This document shows positions 4,187-12,981 of a stretch of DNA of 64,000 bases, in pieces. The position numbers and the translations under genes are program-made. This DNA comes from an uncultured Opitutia bacterium (lineage in GTDB: Bacteria > Verrucomicrobiota > Verrucomicrobiia > Opitutales > UBA953): the NCBI GenBank assembly GCA_903919185.1, contig CAIXHF010000087.1, positions 18,270 to 82,269 on the forward strand, read 5' to 3'. The notes under the pieces are model-generated. The model saw only the letters and a program-made list of their open reading frames with translations, made no database searches and was not told where the DNA came from. Every line of letters starts with the position of its first letter. The first letter of the stretch is position 1.

Positions 4187-4690
4187 TTAAGCCTCGTTCG
4201 AGCCCGGATCTTCCATGGGCTTGAACATATCGGGGATCGTCAAAGTAGGCAGGGCCATCTCGGGCATCTCATCTGGCATCACTTCCGCGACCACGGCGAG
4301 TGGCATGGAGCCGGCAGACGGGACGATCATACCCTCAGCCGAGGCTTCTTCCGCCAAGGCGTCCTCAACATAGAGCATCAGGCCACTGTATTCGGCCGGC
4401 AAGGTCACCCGCAACTGGACGAACACGAGGGCAAGGACGCAGGCATGGGCAAAGATTCGGCCCGCGCGCTGAGCGAAACGGGCGAGGCCCGCGACCGCCT
4501 GCGTCGCGTCTAAATCGGCCCGACCACGGAGGAAAGCCATCTGGGCCTTATGCAAACGAACACGGGCGTGAAAGCGCTGGCGGATTTCGGTGGAAGCCTG
4601 CAGGGCATTCCGCAGACGCAACACCTGCTCACGGGAGGCGGTACCGTCGAGGTAGCAAATAATCAGCGACTCCAGTTCGGCGTTACTCAT
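4187..4690 (-). CDS. Putative anti-sigma factor (single-pass membrane protein)
   Basis: 167-aa ORF. Its start overlaps the sigma gene stop by 4 nt. It has an N-terminal helical segment (LIICYLDGTASREQ), one hydrophobic helix (IFAHACVLALVFVQL) and an acidic/Met-rich tail. The call rests on position only; no family was recognised. Confidence 0.5.
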   Translation of the reverse strand: MSNAELESLIICYLDGTASREQVLRLRNALQASTEIRQRFHARVRLHKAQMAFLRGRADLDATQAVAGLARFAQRAGRIFAHACVLALVFVQLRVTLPAEYSGLMLYVEDALAEEASAEGMIVPSAGSMPLAVVAEVMPDEMPEMALPTLTIPDMFKPMEDPGSNEA

Positions 4691-5277
4691 TCGCGGAATT
4701 CATCCCCCATGAGTTGACGTAAGGCTTCGCGGGCACGGTTGATGCGGCTTTTCACGGTGCCAATTGAGAGGCCAAGCTCTTCGGCAATTTCCTCGTACGA
4801 CTGGTTGCGGATGTTGCGCATCGTTAGAATACGAGCGTGTTCTGGCTTCAATTGTTCCATGCACTCGGCCACTTTTGTAACGAATTCGTTATGCTCGGCT
4901 TCGTGGCCAGGGCCCTGGGAACCGTCCGAGAGGATGTCGTGCAGGGTGGCACCGGGATCCTCCCCGAGGTCCGCATCGAGGGACATGGACTGGTCACGCT
5001 TCCGCCGACGCCAGTACCAGTACCGATTACGAGCCAGATTCGTGCCAATTTGGTGAATCCAAGTTGAAAAAGTGGCCGTCCCGCGGAAGGAAGCGAGGAC
5101 CCGGTGGGCGCGAATAAAGGTGTCCTGCGTAATCTCCTCGGCATCCTGCCTATTACGAAGCAACGAGAAGACCTTGGCAAAGATTCGCCCCTGGTACCGA
5201 AGGACCAACTCGTTGTACGCCCCGAGGTCGCCATTGCGGGCGCGCTCAAGGGCGGACTGGTCGGCTTCAGTTTCCAT
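4687..5277 (-). CDS. ECF-type RNA polymerase sigma-70 factor
   Basis: 196-aa ORF. Region 2 reads EEITQDTFIRAHRVLASFRG...FSTWIHQIGTNLARN. The region 4 HTH reads QSYEEIAEELGLSIGTVKSRINRAREAL. Confidence 0.88.
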   Translation of the reverse strand: METEADQSALERARNGDLGAYNELVLRYQGRIFAKVFSLLRNRQDAEEITQDTFIRAHRVLASFRGTATFSTWIHQIGTNLARNRYWYWRRRKRDQSMSLDADLGEDPGATLHDILSDGSQGPGHEAEHNEFVTKVAECMEQLKPEHARILTMRNIRNQSYEEIAEELGLSIGTVKSRINRAREALRQLMGDEFRE

Positions 5278-5377
5278 CGTTTAGGGGTGGCTTTAGGGCG
5301 GGTATTTCCTGACTATGGTGCTGACATTAGGGGAGATATCAACTGCTGTCTTCAATCCCCAACCTCCTTTAGGAACC

Positions 5378-7096
5378 ATGTTCACCTCCAGCAAAAAAAA
5401 GACCCCGTTTCGATGGGTCAACTGCCTGAACGGCCAAAAGGGTTCGGCCGACAGCCTCCCGGCACGTTTCCCCCTCCCTTCCGCCAACCCCGCCCTAGGT
5501 ATTTCGGCGTCCGCAGCCGGGCTCTTACTGGAAGCCACCTCGGCGGCACCCGTCTTGGTGAATGGAGCCCTTCTGCGCCCCAAGACGACCATCACCGAAA
5601 CGTCGACGATCCAACTCGAGGACGGGCTTTTCGTGGTTTCGGGGAACGAAGATGACCCCTTCAACTCCGTCCAAACGAATTCGTGGGTCCTGTTCGATGC
5701 AACCACCGGCGACCTGCTGGGCGAGCTACCACCCCAAAAACTACTGGAGTATGCCGCTAACCTCGGCCGGGCGACCGATACACTGGCGTGCACACCCGCC
5801 GGCCTCGAAGTCGGCTTTAAACTTTCGCAGATCGCGGCGCTGCTCACCGTACGCGAAGAAACCGAAGCCAAACCGGCGGCACCGTCCGCCCTCACGGCGG
5901 AACAAAACAAAGGCGCCCATCTTTGCCCTGTTTGCTGGACGCGCTTCGACGCCGGTGATGCCTTGAGCGTCGCTATCCACGAAGACCTCCGCGGCGACCC
6001 CATCCTGGGGGCCGACGCACGCCTACGTTTCCAACCCACGCGTTTCAACGACCAGGGCCTCGCCCTTGACCCGATGGGCTTAGCCTGCACCGACCTTGCC
6101 TGCCCCCACTGCCGACGCCAACTGCCGCCCGGCTACTTGGACATGCCCCACCGCATCCTCTCGGTAATCGGCGCGCCTAGCGCCGGCAAGTCCTACTACC
6201 TCGCGGTCCTGACGCACGTCCTCCAAGACCGGCTGCCCGGGGATTTCGGCCTAGCCTTCAAGGACGGCGACCCGAGCGGCAACATGCTGCTCAATCAAAT
6301 GCGTAATACCCTCTTCTCGGCCGCCACGCCCGAAGACGCCCTACTCGGTAAGACCGCACTGGAAGGCGCGACTTACGAAAAGCTGCCTCGCCTCGGGCGC
6401 ATGGTCTCCCTGCCCCGCCCATTCATCTATTCACTAGCCCGGCCCTCGGCGAGTCGCGACGAGACGTCGATTGTGCTCTACGATAACGCGGGGGAACACT
6501 TCGAACCCGGCATCGACATCCACGACTCGCCGGGCGCGATGCACGTCGCCAACTCCGCTGGCCTGCTCTTTCTCTTCGACCCGACGGCCAACGCTCGCTT
6601 TAAGGCTAAGTTAATCGGCGTAGATGACCCACAGTTAGCGATCAAAGGCCGCATCGACCAACAGGATAGCATTCTGTCCGAGATGGAGACCCGTATTAAG
6701 CGCGTTCTCGGACTCGCCCCTAGCCAACGCATCGCCACGCCACTGGCCTTCGTGGTCGGTAAATGCGATACTTGGCAATTCCTCCTGTCCTCCCCGCTCG
6801 AGCCTGTAGTGAGCGCCGGCAAACTCAACCCCGAGGCCGTGCGCCGAAACTCCGACCGCGTCCGCACCGTCCTCGTCAGCCTTTGCCCTGGTCTCGTGGC
6901 GACGGCCGAAACGCTCGCCAGTGAAATCTGCTACTTTGCGGTCACTTCCTTCGGCCACCAGCCAACGGTTCTCGCCACTGGCCCGAATAAAGGCCGCATC
7001 GCCCCCGACCCCCAGCGCCTCGCGCCCGCCCACGTCGAAGAGCCCGTCTACTGGCTCCTCCATCGCTCGTCCCCTGAACTGCTCCCCAGCCGCTAA
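5378..7096 (+). CDS. Zn-ribbon-containing Ras-like (TRAFAC) GTPase, uncharacterised family (operon gene 1)
   Basis: ORF 5315..7096. I prefer the ATG at 5378, which leaves about 100 nt of divergent promoter space; 5315 is the alternative. CxxC pairs lie at 5924-5935 (CPVC) and 6101-6112 (CPHC). G1/Walker A is GAPSAGKS at 6170-6193. G3 is DNAGE at 6482 (compare Ras DTAGQE). G4-like is VVGKCD at 6758 (compare Ras VGNKCD). The N-terminal approx 180 aa are possibly FHA-like (VLVNGALLRPKTTITETSTIQLEDGLFVV). Confidence 0.7.
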   Translation: MFTSSKKKTPFRWVNCLNGQKGSADSLPARFPLPSANPALGISASAAGLLLEATSAAPVLVNGALLRPKTTITETSTIQLEDGLFVVSGNEDDPFNSVQTNSWVLFDATTGDLLGELPPQKLLEYAANLGRATDTLACTPAGLEVGFKLSQIAALLTVREETEAKPAAPSALTAEQNKGAHLCPVCWTRFDAGDALSVAIHEDLRGDPILGADARLRFQPTRFNDQGLALDPMGLACTDLACPHCRRQLPPGYLDMPHRILSVIGAPSAGKSYYLAVLTHVLQDRLPGDFGLAFKDGDPSGNMLLNQMRNTLFSAATPEDALLGKTALEGATYEKLPRLGRMVSLPRPFIYSLARPSASRDETSIVLYDNAGEHFEPGIDIHDSPGAMHVANSAGLLFLFDPTANARFKAKLIGVDDPQLAIKGRIDQQDSILSEMETRIKRVLGLAPSQRIATPLAFVVGKCDTWQFLLSSPLEPVVSAGKLNPEAVRRNSDRVRTVLVSLCPGLVATAETLASEICYFAVTSFGHQPTVLATGPNKGRIAPDPQRLAPAHVEEPVYWLLHRSSPELLPSR

Positions 7097-7104
7097 CGTT
7101 TTCC

Positions 7105-9237
7105 ATGCCCCTGCAACTGATCTTCACCTCCGCCCCCCGCGGACTTGTCGCCGGACGTTCCGGCTTCTGCACCGTCGCTCGGCATGCCTCGCTTTCGGAA
7201 CGACTCACGCAGCAACTCGAAGCACTGGGCACACCGCACGACGCCGCCGAGGGGGCGACCTTCACCTTCCGTCGGCTCGAAGCTGGCAGCCAAACTTGGT
7301 ATGTGCTATCGCGTTTCGTCGCCCGCGGGCTTGACTATTCGCAACGCGATAATCGCCTCGCGCACCACGTGGTATTCACCGCCGAGGAAGCCGCTGTCCT
7401 CCCGCCGCCCGCGGCACTCGCCCTCCGCTGGAATGACTGGAAAGATACTTGGACCGAAGAGCCGACCTGGCTTCCGGAAGATGCCCGGCCGCTCCCACTC
7501 GCCTCACATCCCGTACTCACGCCGGCCGCTGGCTGGCGTGAATTCGCCGGCACCGGCGCTAAGGCTGCATGGCTGGTCAACGCCACCGGCGCCGCTTCGG
7601 TGTCGTTGCTAAACCCGCCGAACTCCGCGCAACTACTCCGCTTACTCGCGGAATCCTCCGCCTTGCTCGGCCGCGCCGCTTGGTCCGCCACCTTCACCAC
7701 TAACGCCGCCAAGACCGGCGCCGATGGCTTCGATTGGGCCGTGGGTTTCGCCTCGGGACGTCCCACCATCGACCTCGCCCAAGCCGCGCAGCTCACCGCG
7801 CCCACGGGTGAACTAGCCCGCATCGCCGCTACCGGCGCAGGTGCGACCGCCCCCGCTTCCGCTGGCCCAACGGCTTCCGCGCCGCGCCGAACCAACTCTG
7901 CCAGCGCCCCCGCCACCGCCTCCAACACCGTCACGATTGCAGTCGTTAGCCTCCTCGTGCTCGTCGCCGCCGGCCTCGCCATTGCTTACTTCAGTAAACC
8001 CGAAAAGAAGGTCGTCGAGACCACTAAGCCTACCCCACCGCCCATTGACTCGACCGCGGCCGATGAACTCCTCAAGGCCAACCGCGCAATCAGCGATGTC
8101 GATAGTTTCATGGCCCGCAATGACTTTGTCGCCGCCGGCAAACTGTGGCTCGAGAGCTGCAAACTTTCGCCGACCTTTGCCGCCCGCTACCGCGACCAAT
8201 ACTTGCCGCGCCTGAAGTCGAAGTTCGCAGAGACGACCGCGGCCAGCCTGCTGGGCCGACTCGAAAGCCCGACCGCGACCGCCAACCGTAAAGGCATGCT
8301 GGAAATCGCCGAAGACGCGGCCGAAGCGCTCCGCCTTGGGACCGCCCTCGAAGTCACGAAAGGTGCCGCCTGGGAAGAACTCACGCGCATCCAAGCCCGG
8401 GCCCAGATGGTCGGCGCCTTGGACGTCCGACCCGTCATCCTAACCCAAGGCGAATGGCTAACGGCCGACCTCGGACCTAACTCGCCTTCGACCGCCGAAT
8501 TCAAACTCAACATGGCCTCCGCGGAAAAAATCGGTCGATTCATCGACACCACCGGCGCCAACAAAAACACGGTAGTCAGCGCCCGTATTCGCCTGCTACC
8601 GCTAGACTCCTTCCATGCCCGCGAAGAGAAGACTAAATACCAGTCCGCGGAAATCCGGACGGGCAGCCAAGCCAATTGGATCGAAGCCACAAGCAAATCC
8701 GGTCGCCAACCCATCGTGATCGGCGTGGGCTCCCGCCTGAACACGGTGACACTGAACTTCGCCGACAACTCGGCCGCGCAGCTCCGGGACACTAACCAGT
8801 TAATCGAAATCGAATTGCCCGATGGGTCACACCAGACCATCGCGCTCATCGCCAACGTCAAAGCCCTCCGCCCACTCAATCTGGGCCTCGCCGCCCTGAG
8901 GTCGGACGTCGACACCGGCGTGGTCCATGCAGCGGCCTGGGCTGAACCGATTTTGAATTCATTCATCGCCTCCACTGGCTCACTCGGACTCTACCCCGCT
9001 GGTCATGAGTTCCCTGATCGCGACCTCGCCTCAATCCGCGCTACCAAGTCCCTGCTCGATACCGATCTCGTCCGCCTCGAGCGGAAGTCCGGCCCTGGTG
9101 CTCCCTCCTACGATGAAGTCAAAGCCCGCCGCAGCGCTTTCACGGCACAAGATTTCGTCAAAGCCGGCGCCCCTTGGAGCCTCCGAACGGTTTCACCTCG
9201 CGGTGAAGAGGGCCTCCTGCTCGTCGAATTCCGCTAA
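7105..9237 (+). CDS. Large single-pass membrane protein with N-terminal GTPase-associated-protein-like domain (operon gene 2)
   Basis: 710-aa ORF starting 8 nt after gene 1. The N-terminus reads MPLQLIFTSAPRGLVAGRSGFCTVA...GLDYSQRDNRLAHHVVF. An Ala/Pro/Ser-rich linker follows, then one TM helix (VTIAVVSLLVLVAAGLAIAYF, about 7927-7992) and an approx 410-aa helical plus beta-rich C-terminal domain. Confidence 0.7.
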   Translation: MPLQLIFTSAPRGLVAGRSGFCTVARHASLSERLTQQLEALGTPHDAAEGATFTFRRLEAGSQTWYVLSRFVARGLDYSQRDNRLAHHVVFTAEEAAVLPPPAALALRWNDWKDTWTEEPTWLPEDARPLPLASHPVLTPAAGWREFAGTGAKAAWLVNATGAASVSLLNPPNSAQLLRLLAESSALLGRAAWSATFTTNAAKTGADGFDWAVGFASGRPTIDLAQAAQLTAPTGELARIAATGAGATAPASAGPTASAPRRTNSASAPATASNTVTIAVVSLLVLVAAGLAIAYFSKPEKKVVETTKPTPPPIDSTAADELLKANRAISDVDSFMARNDFVAAGKLWLESCKLSPTFAARYRDQYLPRLKSKFAETTAASLLGRLESPTATANRKGMLEIAEDAAEALRLGTALEVTKGAAWEELTRIQARAQMVGALDVRPVILTQGEWLTADLGPNSPSTAEFKLNMASAEKIGRFIDTTGANKNTVVSARIRLLPLDSFHAREEKTKYQSAEIRTGSQANWIEATSKSGRQPIVIGVGSRLNTVTLNFADNSAAQLRDTNQLIEIELPDGSHQTIALIANVKALRPLNLGLAALRSDVDTGVVHAAAWAEPILNSFIASTGSLGLYPAGHEFPDRDLASIRATKSLLDTDLVRLERKSGPGAPSYDEVKARRSAFTAQDFVKAGAPWSLRTVSPRGEEGLLLVEFR

Positions 9238-12210: not shown

Positions 12211-12846
12211 ATGGCCAAGCCCGACCAATTCCGCCTACGCTGGAAAGGTGCCGTCACCGGCCCCTTCGCCTTGGCACGTATCAGTGAAATGCTCCGGGCA
12301 GGCGAAATCAGCTTGGTGCACAATATCGAAGTCAACGACGCTTGGCTCACCATTCGTGATTACTTCCGGACAATCGGCCTCAACCGCGGCTCGCTACTCC
12401 CACCGATTGACCCGTTCACTGGGCGTGACGGCCCGGACCTCCCGCCCCCGCCACCAGGCGCAGCTGGCACCATCCACGCACCCGCGATACCCGCGTCATC
12501 GCCCGCGTCCGCCGCCGGCGAAGCACTGGAGCGCAACGTCCGCGAAGGGTATCTCTGGTGCGGCTCGACGTTCCTCTTCCCGCCACTCTTCGCGGTCGTC
12601 GTGCCGCTCTGGGAAAAGACGGTCGGGGCGCTCCCATCGTCCTCAAAATATACGCTGTTCATCTTCGCGACGCTGCTCGGCTGTAGCCTCCCGCTGTGGT
12701 TAGTCCAACGGGTGGGCCGCCAAATCAGCCAAGAAGGCTTGGACGAAATCTCCCAGGCCCAAAGCCGCCTCTGCCTCGTTTTAGCAGGCCTAGGTACGGT
12801 TTTCTGGCTTTTTATGTTCGGGTTCCTCGCCAAGCCCAGCCTCTAA
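12211..12846 (+). CDS. GYF_2 (DUF4339)-like domain membrane protein (operon gene 4)
   Basis: 211-aa ORF starting 3 nt after gene 3. The N-terminal GYF-like segment reads FRLRWKGAVTGPFALARISEMLRAGEISLVHNIEVNDAWLTIRDYF. A Pro-rich linker (PDLPPPPPGAAG, 12442-12459) follows, then three hydrophobic helices. Confidence 0.7.
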   Translation: MAKPDQFRLRWKGAVTGPFALARISEMLRAGEISLVHNIEVNDAWLTIRDYFRTIGLNRGSLLPPIDPFTGRDGPDLPPPPPGAAGTIHAPAIPASSPASAAGEALERNVREGYLWCGSTFLFPPLFAVVVPLWEKTVGALPSSSKYTLFIFATLLGCSLPLWLVQRVGRQISQEGLDEISQAQSRLCLVLAGLGTVFWLFMFGFLAKPSL

Positions 12847-12904: not shown

Positions 12905-12981
12905 GGTAGCGTAGCTCAGTTGGTTAGAGCGAGGGACTCATAAGCCCTAGGTCGGCAGTTCAATTCTGCCCGTTACCACCA
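12905..12981 (+). tRNA. tRNA with CAT anticodon (elongator Met or lysidine-type Ile2, not initiator), CCA encoded
   Basis: Hand-folded cloverleaf. Acceptor GGTAGCG/CGTTACC (one G-U pair). D arm GCTC-AGTTGGTTA-GAGC. Anticodon arm AGGGA-CTCATAA-GCCCT, with CAT at 12939-12941 and a 31-39 A/G mismatch. T arm GGCAG-TTCAATT-CTGCC. Discriminator A, then CCA. The G1-C72 pair argues against an initiator. Confidence 0.85.

Follow-up and report, generated by a model that had tools for sequence, protein, structure and literature searches.

We report that a gene within a 64,000-nucleotide (nt) stretch of DNA from an uncultured Opitutia bacterium (contig CAIXHF010000087.1, positions 18,270 to 82,269; the whole stretch is hereafter called the window) encodes an unannotated DO-GTPase of type 2 (Pfam PF19993) and belongs to a GAP1-N2 GTPase-centric system. 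We favor, with somewhat better than even confidence, the hypothesis that this GTPase is the nucleotide switch of the GAP1-N2 system and that in the Opitutae its complex links a signal from the envelope or periplasm to a cytoplasmic output timed by GTP. An earlier note on this DNA, made from the sequence alone, had described a Ras-like G domain fused to a split zinc ribbon and a possible FHA-like N-terminus, in a domain order that it did not recognize. That order is not new, given that the DO-GTPase family (PF19993) and its GAP1 partner were described in 2020 by Kaur, Burroughs, Iyer and Aravind (eLife 2020, PMC7159879), who introduced the "GTPase-centric systems" with the families PF19993 and PF20013. 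Three core traits were recognized in that study, namely, a new TRAFAC family with a conserved Walker B Glu, one or two zinc ribbons at the N-terminus, and a GAP1 gene that follows downstream (PMC7159879). The GAP1-N2 type is membrane-proximal and occurs in actinobacteria, firmicutes, planctomycetes, verrucomicrobia, and chloroflexi; its third component is typically an FNIII-repeat protein, a paralogous second GTPase is present in 38% of systems and is not obligatory, and the planctomycete systems are sometimes coupled to a protein that is rich in transmembrane (TM) segments and carries a GYF domain (PMC7159879). Our literature search for DO-GTPase or GAP1-N1/N2 returned nothing beyond this study except a passing mention.

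Several lines of evidence place the protein in this family. First, orthologs that are 63–97% identical to it carry a precomputed PF19993 match. Second, the homologs P0133, P0180, and P0238 score 32–38 bits against PF19993, and at E<=0.01 the match extends to 41 of 50 homologs. Third, the next gene matches Pfam GAP1-N2 (PF20013) with E=1.3e-20 and 74 bits against a cut-off of 24, and the arrangement of a GTPase gene followed by a GAP1-N2 gene recurs in distant loci. The gene begins at the ATG at position 5378, the start chosen by the earlier note, and the orthologs agree in having about 572 residues (aa) and in opening with MFTSSKK. Its domains and motifs are as follows; motif residue numbers (C204, K292, T347, E394, D485, etc.) refer to the 593-aa mechanical open reading frame 5315–7096 (+) and domain residue ranges to the 572-aa protein.

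5378..7096, + strand: DO-GTPase (type 2) gene, 572 aa plus stop; a soluble protein without a TM segment
5405..5647, + strand: degenerate FHA-fold beta-sandwich, residues ~10–90, from Foldseek, the family profile, and alignment to the homolog P0143
5666..5848, + strand: GYF_2-like domain, residues ~97–157, beta-beta-alpha-beta-beta-alpha
5855..5902, + strand: flexible linker, residues ~160–175, with a predicted local distance difference test score (pLDDT) below 50 at residues 160–173
5915..6127, + strand: predicted Cys4 zinc-ribbon domain with a conserved 55-aa beta-rich insert, knuckles at 5924–5935 and 6101–6112
6149..7093, + strand: TRAFAC G domain with large inserts, from Foldseek against PDB and BFVD and from motif conservation
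6170–6193, + strand: G1 motif of the TRAFAC G domain
6353–6355, + strand: putative G2 Thr347, K346-T347 being at least 90% conserved
6482–6496, + strand: G3 (Walker B) motif DNAGE, residues 390–394
6758–6769, + strand: G4 motif GKCD, that is, [GSTA]KxD, with conserved K483 and D485

The relatives of this protein are numerous. A word-indexed search of a 5.8-billion-protein collection returned 1359 relatives, and an HMMER scan that covered all 1.84 billion cluster representatives returned 1392 clusters at E<=1e-3 and 381 at 1e-30. We measured conservation in an alignment of 145 representatives, one per 50%-identity cluster and each at most ~55% identical to the query. The region common to all homologs extends from the first CPxC to the C-terminus, and the first ~180 residues vary by lineage. 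The G motifs lie where the earlier note had placed them, with G1 (GAPSAGKS) at residues 286–293 (nt 6170–6193), G3 (LYDNAGEHF) at residues 388–396 (nt 6476–6502, its position 6482 being the D of DNAGE), and G4 (FVVGKCDTW) at residues 479–487 (nt 6749–6775, its position 6758 being the G of GKCD); the distance from G1 to G3, which it had put at about 95 aa, is 96 residues from S293 to D390. GxxxxGK[ST] is kept in all 145 representatives, Y-D-N-A-G-E-x-F in 134–141 of them with the Walker B Glu in 138, and K483 and D485 of G4 in 141. The four Cys of the zinc ribbon, GKS, DxxG, and the Lys and Asp of G4 are therefore nearly invariant, and a failure of the Cys pairs and G motifs to be conserved, which would have spoken against the earlier note, was not seen among the 145 representatives. 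The Cys that it had included in GKCD did not hold up, as this position is variable (Y/C/F/A), and the consensus of G4 becomes [GSTA]-K-x-D. This degree of motif conservation is well beyond chance. The insert between G1 and switch I also holds a D-x-D-x-x-x-N motif (FKDGDPSGN; window positions 6263–6283, residues 317–323), which is at least 90% conserved in the same representatives and is without counterpart in classical GTPases.

The fold of the G domain is in agreement with the motifs. An AlphaFold2 model of the full-length protein, built on a 101-sequence alignment, has a mean pLDDT of 92.9, and Foldseek with this model against PDB returned only TRAFAC GTPases (aEF1A, Hbs1, EF-Tu, GBP1/2, atlastin, MRAS, Arl, Rho, G-alpha, and YcjX). 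In the viral library BFVD the matches were dynamin-family, GBP, Ras/Ran/Rab, and EF1A proteins of giant viruses. The matches have E-values of ~1e-5 but TM-scores of only 0.2–0.28 on the query, and thus the TRAFAC fold class is clear and no known subfamily is prominent. At the level of sequence, phmmer with the protein found no match among PDB chains, and the family profile found the FHA and GYF parts only, with no chain that matches the G domain. The G domain that had been proposed is therefore borne out, with no sign in Foldseek of a non-TRAFAC fold such as that of an ABC or AAA+ ATPase, but the term "Ras-like" is too specific, since EF1A/Hbs1/EF-Tu, GBP/atlastin/dynamin, and YcjX match equally with Ras. 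The lack of Asn in G4, the Glu in G3 in place of Gln61 of Ras, and the large inserts also disfavor the term; Ras-like small GTPases have a compact G domain of ~20 kDa with DxxGQ, NKxD, and SAK motifs, and here we find a G domain of ~315 aa with DxxGE and [GSTA]KxD. A translation-factor role, suggested by the EF1A/Hbs1 top matches, was considered and rejected because the alignment is confined to the G core, domains II/III are missing, and the setting in the operon does not suit a translation factor.

The departures from the canonical motifs, namely, [GSTA]KxD instead of NKxD in G4 and DxxGE in G3 with Gln61 replaced, might also be taken to mean that the P-loop domain is an ATPase or a catalytically dead scaffold, not a GTP-specific switch. 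We find this hardly credible, since K483 and D485, which would read guanine, are kept in 141 of the 145 representatives, all of the phosphate and Mg residues are invariant, and a Glu that is found family-wide is consistent with catalysis. Dynamin (TKLD) and the septins (AKAD) are bona fide GTPases without the G4 Asn. Indeed, the shared loss of this Asn, together with the structural matches to dynamin and GBP, fits the idea of a dimerizing double GTPase.

Upstream of the G domain, the two Cys pairs that the earlier note had read as a split zinc ribbon were found at the positions it gave (CPVC at nt 5924–5935 and CPHC at nt 6101–6112), with 55 residues between C207 and C263. Positions C204, C207, C263, and C266 are Cys in 138–144 of the 145 representatives, and a fifth Cys, C258, is kept in 111. 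In the model each CPxC lies at a beta-hairpin turn, and the pLDDT of the domain is 95–98. Furthermore, the losses are concerted: P0152 and P0158, both full-length, each lack three of the four Cys, as would be expected of a single metal site. The near-invariance, the hairpin turns in a high-confidence model, and the concerted losses all agree with the split ribbon and support a single Cys4 unit made of both CPxC pairs, a predicted zinc ribbon. The 55-aa "insert" between the pairs is the best conserved stretch of the GTPase, with H222, L225, D228, G232, R238, F239, D252, and G255 each at least 90% conserved.

The AlphaFold2 layout (572-aa numbering) comprises an all-beta part at residues 11–88, a beta-beta-alpha-beta-beta-alpha part at 99–156, a disordered linker at 160–173, a beta-rich part at 181–250 that holds both CPxC at its hairpin turns, and an alpha/beta part to the end. 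Thus, the architecture of the protein is FHA-like, GYF-like, linker, zinc ribbon, and G domain. The beta-rich N-terminal stretch on which the FHA suggestion had been based (VLVNGALL...GLFVV) is present at residues 80–108 (nt 5552–5638), and the suggestion has proved right. A separate AlphaFold2 model of residues 1–165 (pLDDT 90.4) gave FHA domains for all of the top 50 Foldseek matches in PDB, with TMt of 0.5–0.67 and a root-mean-square deviation of ~3 Å over 90–100 columns; CT664, EmbR, Ki67, YscD, DgcB, and OdhI/GarA are among them. The family profile matches the FHA sequences of FhaA (E=2.4e-5), Ki67, and EmbR, and the homolog P0143, which is 36–38% identical, exceeds the Pfam FHA cut-off at the aligned position. 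By Foldseek and the family profile, the N-terminus has the eleven-stranded beta-sandwich of FHA domains. The earlier note was also correct in finding no canonical FHA residues: in the alignment, Gly-Arg is absent from the query and the Ser-x-x-His loop of the FHA-positive homologs falls in a 12-column gap, the Asn-Gly (VNG) being kept.

The earlier note had overlooked the GYF-like domain that lies between the FHA-like domain and the zinc ribbon. Among the 68 homolog segments that align here, 28 match Pfam GYF_2, the best with E=1.3e-19; hhalign joins the divergent to the canonical GYF group with 84% probability, the family profile matches the GYF structure of GltJ/AgmX (7z3c) with E=0.0035 and GIGYF2 weakly, and the secondary structure of the segment in the AlphaFold2 model agrees with GYF topology. 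Elsewhere in the family the N-termini include a second canonical zinc ribbon, which is found in many distant homologs, a true FHA domain, TIR, a protein kinase, and GYF_2, and some members carry an FGE-sulfatase-like domain at the C-terminus or are fused to GAP1.

The FHA fold, together with the resemblance of G1, G3, and G4 to those of Ras, might suggest a Ras-like small GTPase whose FHA domain reads phosphorylation by Ser/Thr kinases, which is the picture of a sensor, zinc ribbon, and Ras domain that the earlier note implied. The gene of P0143, whose FHA domain is above threshold, indeed adjoins those of two Ser/Thr kinases and an FHA protein. However, the query has no Gly-Arg, its Ser-x-x-His loop is deleted, and there is no kinase in the Opitutae neighborhood that was examined. 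Its G domain matches EF1A, GBP, and dynamin no less closely than Ras, and ~55 residues are added between G1 and G3. With the phosphothreonine site gone and no kinase nearby, the phospho-regulated reading is weak for the query, and we consider it quite improbable here; it may hold for distant relatives.

Returning to the GAP1-N2 switch, the GTPase gene is followed by three further genes on the same strand, each of which encodes a protein with TM segments.

7105..9237, + strand: GAP1 protein with a GAP1-N2 domain, one TM segment (residues 268–299), and an outer part of ~410 aa
9244..12207, + strand: third conserved component, 987 aa and without a Pfam family; helical cytoplasmic N-domain of ~350 aa, one TM segment (355–375), coiled-coil stalk (~411–595), and globular C-terminus
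12211..12846, + strand: fourth protein, with a GYF_2-like domain, a PPPPPG linker (12442–12462), and three TM segments, from Pfam GYF_2 in orthologs, hhalign, and the TM segments

The four genes form a tight operon, with only 8, 6, and 3 nt from one gene to the next and no + strand terminator found between them. This context, too, had gone unremarked in the earlier note. A check of the 572-aa GTPase for hydrophobic segments found none. The cytoplasmic part of GAP1 is ~265 aa long and includes a weak GAP1-M match (E=0.032). Neither GAP1 nor the third protein has an informative PDB relative by sequence or profile, the stalk of the latter giving coiled-coil-type matches only, and NCBIfam has no family for any of the four proteins. 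No FNIII (fn3) match was found in the four proteins with Pfam, the C-terminal part of GAP1 giving only a weak BACON match (E=0.17). Likewise, tblastn of the window with the GTPase finds only the gene itself and hence no paralogous second GTPase.

The order of GTPase, GAP1-N2, and a protein of ~1000 aa recurs in a distant locus, L081 (a JGI metagenome contig, 1–21824). Only the cytoplasmic N-domains are recognizably similar between this locus and the window, at 34% identity over 260 aa for GAP1 and at 27% over 275 aa (E=6e-25) for the third protein. Because its N-domain recurs there, the third protein is a conserved core component; it occupies the place of the FNIII-repeat protein in the 2020 scheme and looks like an undescribed core component of the GAP1-N2 systems of the Planctomycetes-Verrucomicrobia-Chlamydiae (PVC) type. 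The GTPase of L081 keeps a recognizable FHA domain, upstream of its gene are those of an FHA protein and of two Ser/Thr kinases, one of which has WD40 repeats, and RDD and MotA/ExbB-like genes lie downstream, which suggests that L081 is a phospho-regulated variant of the GAP1-N2 system.

The fourth protein provides a further link to the GTPase. Seven of 18 orthologs match Pfam GYF_2 (best E=6e-6), and hhalign relates its N-domain (g211) to the GYF-like domain of the GTPase with 93.8% probability. The PPPPPG motif (residues 78–84) is part of the cytoplasmic linker that joins the GYF-like domain to the TM segments, and it is a candidate ligand for GYF-like domains; PPPPPG[AFGS] is found in ~27 of 45 orthologs, twice in those of loci L044 and L049, and is absent in several clades. 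A tRNA gene (Rfam RF00005, 66 bits) follows directly after the last operon gene, at window positions 12905–12978 (+).

We next consider how the operon has been inherited. Relatives were present in at least 572 genomes when one genome per species was scanned, and the best 80 loci were examined; these 80 best genomes are all from Opitutae-type Verrucomicrobiota. Across these 80 genomes, the order of ECF (extracytoplasmic function) sigma factor (−), GTPase, GAP1, and third gene persists to GTPase identities as low as 45%, in loci that include those of gut Opitutales, Puniceicoccales, and the isolate Marseille-Q1082, and in closer relatives the operon is flanked by hisHBC and ptsI on one side and by rsfS, nadD, lpxI, and panB on the other. 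Four of the records, from metagenome-assembled genomes titled Klebsiella sp., Enterobacteriaceae, or Akkermansia muciniphila (L022, L047, L052, and L023), have full Opitutae synteny at the locus, and these bins are probably mislabelled. Among relatives in the 60–85% identity tier, the highest segment identity within the GTPase is that of the zinc ribbon (89%), followed by the G domain (79%), the GYF-like domain (61%), and the FHA-like domain (40%). The corresponding values are 63% and 44% for the cytoplasmic and outer parts of GAP1, 65%, 39%, and 54% for the N-domain, stalk, and head of the third protein, 89% for the ECF sigma factor, and 63–84% for the housekeeping flanks. The G and zinc-ribbon domains thus equal or exceed the housekeeping flanks in conservation. 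G-domain identity co-varies with that of the ECF sigma factor (rho=0.88, n=71) and with that of the flanks (rho 0.4–0.8), and no mobile-element genes adjoin the operon. Judged by these comparisons, the operon appears to be a vertically inherited and strongly constrained apparatus, with a conserved switch and a faster-evolving periphery, which is not the signature of a mobile defense island.

These observations bear on the function that has been put forward for the family. Kaur et al. proposed that these are biological-conflict systems directed against invaders (PMC7159879), and the membership of the present protein in the family extends that proposal to it: the outer domains would sense an invader, the GTPase and GAP1 would set a threshold, and membrane parts such as the TM-rich GYF protein would damage the membrane or arrest the cell. 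The faster evolution of the outer domains and the FHA domain is in keeping with such a role, and the fourth protein, rich in TM segments, might act as a pore-type effector. Still, Pfam, NCBIfam, and PADLOC reveal no effector-type domain in the operon proteins, so that the TM-rich GYF protein is the sole candidate, and PADLOC gives no defense-system match, only a chance match to Cas10d (E=0.039). The fixed chromosomal site among housekeeping genes and the co-divergence with them, purifying selection on the switch core that is as strong as for enzymes, and the single copy in the window without mobile-element genes beside the operon also argue against it. We therefore regard a conflict role in the Opitutae as possible but doubtful; the pattern fits an inherited envelope-signaling switch better than a mobile defense island.

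An output for such a switch may be encoded nearby. The region upstream of the operon contains the following.

4187..4690, − strand: probable single-pass anti-sigma factor, 4-nt overlap with the sigma gene, one TM segment at residues 79–99
4687..5277, − strand: ECF sigma factor (Pfam Sigma70_r2/r4, NCBIfam sigma70-ECF), divergent from the GTPase gene
5322..5353, no strand assigned: conserved non-coding element TGACA-N12-TCAAC, TGCTGTCTTC, between the sigma and GTPase genes

The ECF sigma gene adjoins the GTPase gene in nearly all of the examined Opitutae loci with upstream sequence. The product of 4187..4690 has no family match in Pfam or NCBIfam, and its position, overlap, and one TM segment make it a probable anti-sigma factor. 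The TGACA of the intergenic element is invariant in 10 of 10 aligned Opitutae loci. With both strands tried, the TGACA...TCAAC element does not fit ECF −35/−10 sequences with acceptable spacing, and no sigma-70 consensus promoter was found in the operon region.

We propose the following mechanism for the GAP1-N2 switch. Its invariant residues are what a functional GTPase requires, namely, the Lys and Ser of the P-loop, DxxG, and the Lys and Asp of G4, together with a conserved Lys-Thr that precedes the antiparallel strand (switch I). The G domain would bind GTP, with K292 and S293 contacting the phosphate and Mg, D485 of [GSTA]KxD reading guanine, and T347 acting as switch I, and E394 is the likely catalytic residue given that it lies at the position of Gln61 of Ras and His84 of EF-Tu. 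The domain would probably form a nucleotide-dependent dimer, as in dynamin, GBP, or septin, and its docking partners would be the cytoplasmic GAP1-N2 domain and the helical N-domain of the third protein. Tethering of the GTPase to proline-rich cytoplasmic linkers such as the PPPPPG of the fourth protein may fall to the GYF-like domain, and the FHA fold, its phosphothreonine site lost, may serve as a lineage-specific adaptor. For the N-terminal half, the nearest analogue that is understood from experiments is GltJ of Myxococcus, whose GYF domain binds a proline-rich sequence via a non-canonical surface and whose linker binds MglA-GTP in competition with the GltJ zinc ribbon, the freed ribbon recruiting the GTPase-activating protein MglB (Attia et al., Sci Adv 2024, PMC11135422). 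According to these authors, such zinc ribbon (ZnR)-GYF modules are widespread beside receptor-like membrane proteins (PMC11135422). By analogy with GltJ and MglA, the zinc ribbon beside the G domain may report or control the nucleotide state. The variable outer domains would then sense an envelope or periplasmic signal and elicit the GTP-timed output, possibly via the adjacent pair of ECF sigma and anti-sigma factors rather than a toxic effector. A bolder form of this hypothesis, which we hold only tentatively, is that the Opitutae module is not a conflict system but a trans-envelope signaling machine that belongs to the core and is inherited vertically, in which two single-pass receptor-like proteins and the GYF-TM protein recruit the GTPase, with its GYF-linker-zinc-ribbon switch in cis, and the GTP cycle gates the ECF and anti-sigma factors.

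Several points weigh against the proposal that the GTPase is an envelope-signaling switch of the GAP1-N2 type. The query itself scores 25 bits against Pfam DO-GTPase2 (PF19993), 2 bits short of the cut-off of 27, and gives no match in a Pfam FHA search, nor does its GYF-like segment match Pfam GYF_2 (PF14237). The DO-GTPase/GAP1 family is known from comparative genomics alone, and nucleotide specificity, dimerization, zinc binding, and all protein-protein contacts are features that we infer. The PPPPPG motif is missing from ~40% of the fourth-gene orthologs, the loci examined for presence in the Opitutae number 80, against at least 572 matching genomes, and the adjacency of the ECF sigma gene could reflect shared regulation or inherited gene order only. 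Finally, some distant homologs are fused to TIR_2, FGE-sulfatase-like, and kinase domains, which speaks for a conflict role in the family at large.

Should the module prove to signal from the envelope through the ECF sigma factor, the blanket label of "conflict system" would need qualifying for the family, and the idea of a switch built from a zinc ribbon and a GYF domain, as in GltJ and MglA, would extend to a fused and widely distributed form. If the bolder form of the hypothesis is true, the Opitutae module would be a bacterial analogue of receptor-coupled G-protein signaling that feeds transcription. The Opitutae version offers a clean experimental entry point with one GTPase, three membrane partners, and no confounding effector; the operon is present in culturable relatives such as Puniceicoccaceae Marseille-Q1082, and its conservation yields a high-confidence model. 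There is also a gain in annotation, as thousands of "hypothetical proteins" of Verrucomicrobiota could be named.

Four known systems invite comparison. YscD/EscD of type III secretion likewise have an FHA fold without canonical phosphothreonine residues, in their case at the cytoplasmic face of a membrane complex, and YscD (4a0e, 4d9v) is among the Foldseek matches; the relation is one of fold only, and the system is different. GBP, atlastin, dynamin, and the translation factors resemble the present protein in the core of the G domain, in the inserts that this domain carries, and in a G4 that lacks Asn, and they give the best Foldseek matches, but there is neither a helical stalk or middle domain here nor domains II/III of EF-Tu. 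GltJ (AgmX) has in common with it a GYF domain, a flexible linker, and a Cys4 zinc ribbon that operate with a TRAFAC GTPase at a trans-envelope membrane complex. Here, however, the order is GYF-linker-ZnR, the module forms one polypeptide with its own large GTPase, in cis, whereas GltJ binds MglA in trans, the zinc ribbon carries the conserved 55-aa insert, and there are no MglB, AglZ, or Glt genes; we thus regard the likeness to GltJ as a mechanistic analogy and not as orthology.

The closest correspondence is with the DO-GTPase systems themselves. As in those systems, there is a TRAFAC GTPase with a Walker B Glu (DNAGE) and an N-terminal zinc ribbon (one Cys4 unit), and immediately downstream is a GAP1-N2 gene whose product has its own TM segment, in a membrane-rich context that includes the TM-rich GYF protein. 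In contrast, the Opitutae GTPase carries an FHA-like and GYF-like fusion, on which the text of the 2020 paper is silent, and it is single, with no tubulin, HSP70, or kinase theme and no recognizable effector. The third component is a helical coiled-coil TM protein in place of FNIII, a divergent pair of ECF sigma and anti-sigma factors is conserved beside the operon, and inheritance is vertical and syntenic as opposed to sporadic. Thus, the FHA-like and GYF-like fusion, the non-FNIII third component, the ECF linkage, and vertical inheritance are variant traits of the Opitutae locus among the GAP1-N2 systems.

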